Made by a program: the position numbers and the translations under genes
The notes under the pieces: generated by a model
Seen by the model: the letters and a program-made list of their open reading frames with translations, nothing else
What the model was told of the DNA's origin: nothing
Database searches by the model: none
Part shown: in pieces, positions 9,803 through 10,080 of the stretch
Numbering within the stretch: position 1 is the first letter of the stretch
How the letters are laid out: the number at the start of each line of letters is the position of its first letter
Sequence record: PQ666541
Origin: Shigella phage sb3
Length of the DNA: 64,000 nt
Strand: one strand, 5' to 3'

Positions 9803-10080
9803 TCAAAATGTAATTTCTAACCAATCACCATCACGCTGATCACTATTGACTTTAAAGCTAAATCCTTCTTTTCTCAGCCAATCACCAATTTCTTCAGTAA
9901 TCAATTTATCGCGAGCAGTACAATAATAACTAAAATATGTTTTACCTTGTTCAGCTGCTTTATTAGCAAGTTCCGAAAAATCTTTAATAAAACACTCTAG
10001 TTTAAACTGTTTACTTTTAAGTGCTTTTCGCGTAATTGATTAGCAAAAGATTCATTTTCATAAAGATCATACTGTTCCAT
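9803..10080 (-). pseudogene. 24.2-like small gene with an apparent -1 frameshift
   Basis: ATG at 10080 reads MEQYDLYENESFANQLREKHLKVNSLN then TAG; the rest continues in another frame to the TGA at 9803-9805; a 1-nt insertion in an A-run would restore one ORF. Confidence 0.5.

Follow-up and report, generated by a model that had tools for sequence, protein, structure and literature searches.

An apparent one-base deletion interrupts the T4 24.2 homologue of Shigella phage sb3

Introduction

Gene 24.2 of phage T4 (NP_049791.1; PF26862, Phage_T4_Y10B; phrog_2416) encodes a 92-aa protein and lies between 24.3 and rnlB, overlapping 24.3 by 14 nt and ending in a stop codon 9 nt before rnlB. Literature searches on gp24.2 returned nothing relevant. 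A second point of reference is phage pSs-1 (KM501444 / NC_025829), the annotation of which holds no intact 24.2 and, in the RefSeq version, a 33-aa tail ORF with a TTG start. Here, we analyzed a 64,000-nt stretch of Shigella phage sb3 (PQ666541), called the window below, which is a segment of a Tequatrovirus (T4-like) genome and in which 24.2 occupies the same place as in T4 but is interrupted after 27 codons.

Locus organization

Around the break, the minus strand reads hoc, a terminator hairpin, 24.3, 24.2 and rnlB, an order shared with T4, NR1 and Shfl2. The terminator-like hairpin (10350..10367, minus strand) follows hoc and stands upstream of the 24.3-24.2-rnlB block; a terminator is annotated at the same place in NR1. 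Gene 24.3 (10067..10282, minus strand), which encodes a helix-turn-helix-like DUF2774 protein, is intact on the basis of its PF11242 match (E = 5e-31) and the NR1 and T4 annotations. Its last 14 nt overlap the start of 24.2, which suggests that the two genes could be translationally coupled. Also intact, according to the ORF list and the annotation of relatives, is rnlB (8789..9793, minus strand), the gene for RNA ligase 2. Synteny, therefore, assigns the locus to 24.2, with 24.3 (DUF2774) and rnlB as same-strand neighbors; an uninterrupted ORF of ~92 codons is missing from it, its place taken by 27 codons and a TAG.

This truncated frame (9997..10080, minus strand) was delimited using the ORF list, the sequence itself and comparison with an intact relative. 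It starts at an ATG at 10080, encodes MEQYDLYENESFANQLREKHLKVNSLN and stops at a TAG at 9999-9997, so that the product consists of native residues 1-19 followed by eight frameshifted residues. Alignments and an indel census locate the one-base deletion in a run of four A's at 10025..10028 (minus strand; TTTT on the plus strand), where the minus strand of the window reads CGCG-AAAA-GCAC and relatives have five A's in codons 18-19. The rest of 24.2, codons 21-92 and the TGA, was recovered by translation of the out-of-frame segment at 9803..10021 (minus strand). Read from 10021, this frame gives LKSKQFKLECFIKDF...DGDWLEITF with no internal stop, and its TGA at 9805-9803 lies 9 nt upstream of the rnlB ATG at 9793. 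A base comparison with TB004 returned no mismatch across 9803-10080, every base of the out-of-frame segment included. The first-pass annotation of this DNA had described the ATG with its 27 codons and TAG, a second frame reaching a TGA just before rnlB, and a run at about 10020-10030 in which one extra A would fuse both frames into an ORF of about 90 aa; all three descriptions were borne out, the ORF of the relatives having 92 codons.

According to the ORF list, the sole start codon in the downstream frame is a TTG at 9904, which would yield 33 aa, and inspection of the sequence showed no Shine-Dalgarno motif ahead of it. With such a start, the C-terminal part of 24.2 is most likely not made in the window. 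As rnlB has a GAGGA Shine-Dalgarno of its own, overlapping the normal 24.2 stop codon, we infer that any polar effect of the break on rnlB would be small.

Upstream of the block, a (TTATGA)x3.8 array (10366-10388) directly follows the hoc stop codon and adjoins the terminator hairpin. The array is shorter in pSs-1 (by 12 nt), in sb2 (by 6 nt), and in Shfl2 and TB004 as well; its copy number, therefore, varies between phages. The hoc gene itself (10384-11802, minus strand) encodes 472 aa versus 376 aa in T4, a longer form shared by pSs-1 and sb2, and owes its extra length to a 288-nt tandem duplication (10945-11535, 2.1 copies, 80% match) that adds one Ig-like domain. Between inh and uvsW (12493-12542), the window lacks the segE homing-endonuclease gene, which T4 and Shfl2 have and which is also missing from pSs-1 and sb2. 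Between the tail sheath gene 18 and the tail tube gene 19, it contains a 218-aa ORF (735-1391, plus strand; phrog_5104, no Pfam match) that is absent from T4, Shfl2 and TB004. With its Cys-rich and DH...N motifs, this ORF is probably a mobile endonuclease-type insertion; positions 1001-1500 are identical to pSs-1 at every base.

The gp24.2 family

At the DNA level, 24.2 of the window and of T4 are ~96% identical, and once one A is restored the proteins align over their full length. The restored protein is 99% identical to the common public form; since a single added A recovers the complete gene, the locus does not represent two genes. Profile searches assigned the frame-corrected protein to phrog_2416 (E = 4e-41), which covers residues 10-92, while phrog_3012 covers residues 36-92, and the out-of-frame segment at 9803..10021 contains all of the core conserved in the family. 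The Pfam profile search run here gave no match for gp24.2; its PF26862 assignment comes from precomputed hits to the pSs-1 tail ORF and to Logan homologues. The family is very narrow, with three clusters at 90% identity and four representatives at 50%.

No match to gp24.2 was found among PDB sequences. An AlphaFold model (pLDDT 79) predicts a long helix at residues 12-44 followed by a beta-alpha-beta-beta arrangement; in this predicted fold, the break cuts the helix and removes everything after it. In Foldseek searches of the PDB, the only resemblances, to small RNA-binding domains of the R3H and ribosomal protein S8 types, were non-significant (E ~0.1). We make no R3H assignment because the R-x-x-x-H motif is absent.

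Distribution of the shortened run

We aligned the locus with about eight relatives. T4, Shfl2, sb2, NR1, TB004, FL23 and MLP2 carry A5 and an intact 279-nt, 92-codon ORF, and across 24.2 the window differs from them in length by a single one-base gap. Alignment with T4 and the other relatives supports the deletion in the A run of a 24.2 homologue that the first-pass annotation had proposed and had put down to a homopolymer sequencing error or a real pseudogene, with A5 in the relatives and one gap only. As a plain difference in base count from close relatives, this is not a result in which chance is at issue. In the indel census, position 10025 scored -1 against sb2, Shfl2 and TB004 and 0 against pSs-1.

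A 521-nt block around the site matched 513 phage records; among the best 60 of these 513, 57 span 522 nt and three span 521 nt. The latter three, FL23, FL44 and MLP2, lack a base in another run of five A's, at the 3' end of 24.3 and directly ahead of the 24.2 start (locus position ~508 in FL23 and MLP2), which alters the C terminus of the 24.3 product. Alleles at the 24.2 run were then scored in the phage collection with 40-mers centered on it, such that any 28-base megablast seed must cross the run; the counts apply to the flank haplotypes tested, ~300 matching records carrying other local haplotypes. A5 was present in 162 records with common flanks and in 50 with T4-type flanks. A4 with the flanks of the window was found in pSs-1 only, as the GenBank and RefSeq copies of one genome. 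In the same 40-mer test, A6 gave no match, nor did A4 on T4-type or sb2-type flanks.

A4 was absent from IMG/VR, from JGI metagenomes and from Logan contigs spanning the site, where A5 occurred in two, four and two contigs, respectively. Exact-protein look-ups with the 33-aa tail ORF, with 24.3 from two alternative starts and with RnlB returned only pSs-1 and three Logan metagenome contigs, 2-7% divergent, that encode the exact 24.3 protein of the window; no genome identical to the window was found in Logan, NCBI or JGI. Two of the three contigs span 24.2 and have it intact, and L017 has the extra base. A 59-aa protein from a Logan contig (P0003) is a 24.2 variant frameshifted at a T5 run (GATTTTTCGG). 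Together with FL23, FL44 and MLP2, it indicates that run-length variants recur in this small gene block.

pSs-1, the one other carrier, has the identical A4 and the same premature TAG; its 33-aa RefSeq ORF corresponds to 9803-9904 of the window. A homologue ending at the same point, which the first-pass annotation had named as evidence against a frameshift, is formally supplied by pSs-1, but as the same frameshift allele in one genome and not as a conserved short gene. Further features common to the two phages are a cd.4 interrupted by a CC insertion and a Hoc of 472 aa. They differ at ~3.5% of sites overall, including the SNPs that flank the indel most closely, at 10001 and 10037, and pSs-1 lacks the deletion at 46182 described below. 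Many phages match the first 25 kb of the window at 96-97.4% identity, pSs-1 best of all. SNP identity to the window is 96.55% for pSs-1 and 96.50% for sb2; these two phages are more similar to one another (97.6%) than to the window, and sb2 has neither shared indel. Neither SNP-sharing patterns nor identical-tract lengths supported a recent common ancestor of the window and pSs-1. Given the differing flank SNPs and this lack of special closeness, simple shared descent of A4 does not fit well. The occurrence of the same rare frameshifts on unrelated SNP backgrounds could reflect reference-guided assembly on NC_025829 or natural short-patch recombination.

Frame breaks elsewhere in the window

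Across the full 64 kb, four indels (12, 3, +1 and -1 nt) separate the window from pSs-1. Two of them are net frame changing: an intergenic +1 at 30865 and a -1 at 46182. Apart from these two sites, none of the homopolymer runs, 388 of which are at least 5 bases long, differs in length from pSs-1. Comparison with sb2, Shfl2 and TB004 added two frame-changing indels, both shared with pSs-1: the A4 of 24.2 and the CC at 35794. At 35794-35797, where TGGCC has become TGGCCCC on the coding strand, the CC insertion shifts the frame of a 66-aa cd.4 homologue (35666-35870, minus strand; phrog_2360) and splits it. The insertion junction was found in pSs-1 only among ~50,000 phage records, and the variable sites closest to it on each side again differ between the two phages. 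Between a DUF5417 gene and frd, an 81-aa phrog_3183 ORF (46034-46278, minus strand; Shfl2p239, pSs-1 gp247) is broken into a 35-aa and a 46-aa piece by the deletion at 46182, which turns TTTTCT into TTTTT on the coding strand. This ORF is intact in pSs-1, sb2, Shfl2 and TB004, and the deletion junction was found in no phage record and is private to the window.

All three breaks, at 10025, 35794 and 46182, lie in ORFs of at most 100 aa of the function-unknown class, and no large gene is broken. A tally of CDS tables gave ~6 kb of such small ORFs in the 64 kb (~9%), for which three of three random hits would have a probability of ~1e-3; the pattern, therefore, looks like a filter by selection. 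Two of the three breaks are also in pSs-1, which fits either inheritance or carry-over from a reference.

Origin of the shortened run

The reading that we favor, at about even confidence, is that the 24.2 break is a genuine inherited loss-of-function allele produced by replication slippage. Slippage in the A5 run at codons 18-19 would have deleted one A, so that translation stops after codon 27 and none of the conserved core of the 92-aa protein is made. The phage would tolerate this because 24.2 would be a dispensable accessory gene, and rnlB downstream would retain its own ribosome-binding site. The same allele in pSs-1 suggests that A4 may circulate or recur in that Shigella/E. coli phage group. 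The deletion, its exact position, the intact gene of the relatives, the lost core and the sharing with pSs-1 are shown here; the biological reality of the base count, its origin by slippage and the lack of an important phenotype are what we infer.

Several observations argue for such an allele. The difference between A4 and A5 is unambiguous, and pSs-1, independently deposited, has the same A4. The CC insertion, which extends two bases to four, is not a typical homopolymer miscall, and the assembly is otherwise clean, with two net frame-changing indels relative to pSs-1 despite 388 runs. Other frameshifted alleles exist in the block, as seen in P0003 and in FL23, FL44 and MLP2, and the restriction of all three breaks to small ORFs points the same way. 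Against a real allele stand the undecayed state of the out-of-frame 24.2, which has no substitution relative to TB004 and no stop, and the absence of A4 from the IMG/VR, JGI and Logan contigs, which carry A5. Manual repair by the depositors of frameshifts in large known genes, moreover, would leave breaks in small ORFs only. The secondary decay expected of an established, old pseudogene is absent from the 72 downstream codons; if real, the break is very recent.

A technical origin is a serious contender, to which we give a little less than an even chance. The phage would then really carry A5 and an intact 24.2, the missing A being a homopolymer undercall or an indel state taken over from a reference genome, for which pSs-1, the closest RefSeq genome, would be the natural choice in guided assembly or polishing. 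The nature of the change is compatible with this, as it shortens a single-base run from A5 to A4 and leaves the downstream frame perfectly preserved, and no read-derived metagenome or Logan contig has A4. Ion PGM is a platform that undercalls homopolymers. Since the sole other carrier, pSs-1, was sequenced with Ion PGM and Sanger (PMC4789750), an error could also underlie its own A4. The kinship data point in the same direction: pSs-1 is the top match for the window, yet the two rare indels common to both come without special SNP kinship and with mismatches 12-24 nt to either side, and reference indel states combined with SNPs of the sample are the pattern expected of a reference-guided consensus. 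However, the four indels separating the window from pSs-1 show that indel states were not copied blindly, and homopolymer lengths other than at 30865 and 46182 all equal those of pSs-1. A C2-to-C4 miscall is improbable twice independently, and breaks confined to small ORFs would be unexpected of random errors (~1e-3).

We consider it improbable that inactivation of 24.2 and cd.4 was selected for a benefit to the phage and not neutral, for instance through removal of a trigger sensed by host defense, with the A run as a mutational on/off switch and possibly a trickle of full-length protein from a -1 slip at A-AAG. Such selection would explain why two Shigella/E. coli phages with differing SNP backgrounds carry the same rare frameshifts.

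Slightly more doubtful still is recoding, in which the A4 allele would be expressed as full-length gp24.2, at a low and regulated dose, by a -1 slip or transcriptional slippage. In E. coli, A-AAG sites are prone to shifting. At C GAA AAG, a slip of tRNA-Lys in the P site from AAG to AAA followed by GCA CTT AAA would restore the exact wild-type ...REKALKSK..., and the downstream frame is intact. However, the site contains no X XXY YYZ heptamer: the zero frame reads CGC GAA AAG CAC, in which re-pairing would be open only to the AAG in the A or P site. Nor was a stimulatory RNA structure detected, as a 100-nt stretch that includes the site and extends downstream of it (10040-9940) folded at -13.9 kcal/mol versus a mean of -13.7 for shuffled controls (z = -0.09). 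Four A's are far too short for efficient transcriptional slippage, and the two-frame arrangement is not conserved, at least 212 records (162 + 50) and every aligned relative carrying an in-frame A5.

It is barely credible that the locus comprises two genuine small genes, one for a peptide of 27 aa and one for a C-terminal protein with its own initiation, despite the 33-aa ORF annotated by RefSeq in pSs-1: the C-terminal frame offers only its TTG with no Shine-Dalgarno seen ahead, relatives annotate one 92-aa gene and not the two that the first-pass annotation had named as a refutation, the phrog_2416 profile (10-92) spans the junction and the predicted fold would need the long helix 12-44 that the break splits.

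Discussion

Whether as the genuine slippage allele that we favor or as an error in base count, the break carries little biological weight, amounting to an ordinary broken accessory gene in the first case. Its value lies in annotation: the locus should not be entered as two hypothetical proteins but labeled as 24.2 with a frameshift (pseudogene or 'low-quality; verify'). If all three frameshifts are real, they weakly suggest that plaque growth does not require 24.2, cd.4 or the phrog_3183 ORF.

Set against known systems, the junction resembles the -1 sites of dnaX and IS elements (A AAA AAG with a stimulator) in having an A-preceded lysine AAG at which a -1 shift restores the frame. Those sites combine a full heptamer with a stimulator, whereas the window has neither and its arrangement is unconserved. 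The closest counterpart is T4 24.2 itself, with the same position between 24.3 and rnlB, the same 14-nt overlap and the same 9-nt spacing of the stop codon; T4 has A5 at codons 18-19, while the window has A4, 27 codons and an untranslated conserved core. The locus is, thus, a frameshifted copy of a known T4 accessory gene, nothing new in kind, in an allele already present in GenBank through pSs-1.
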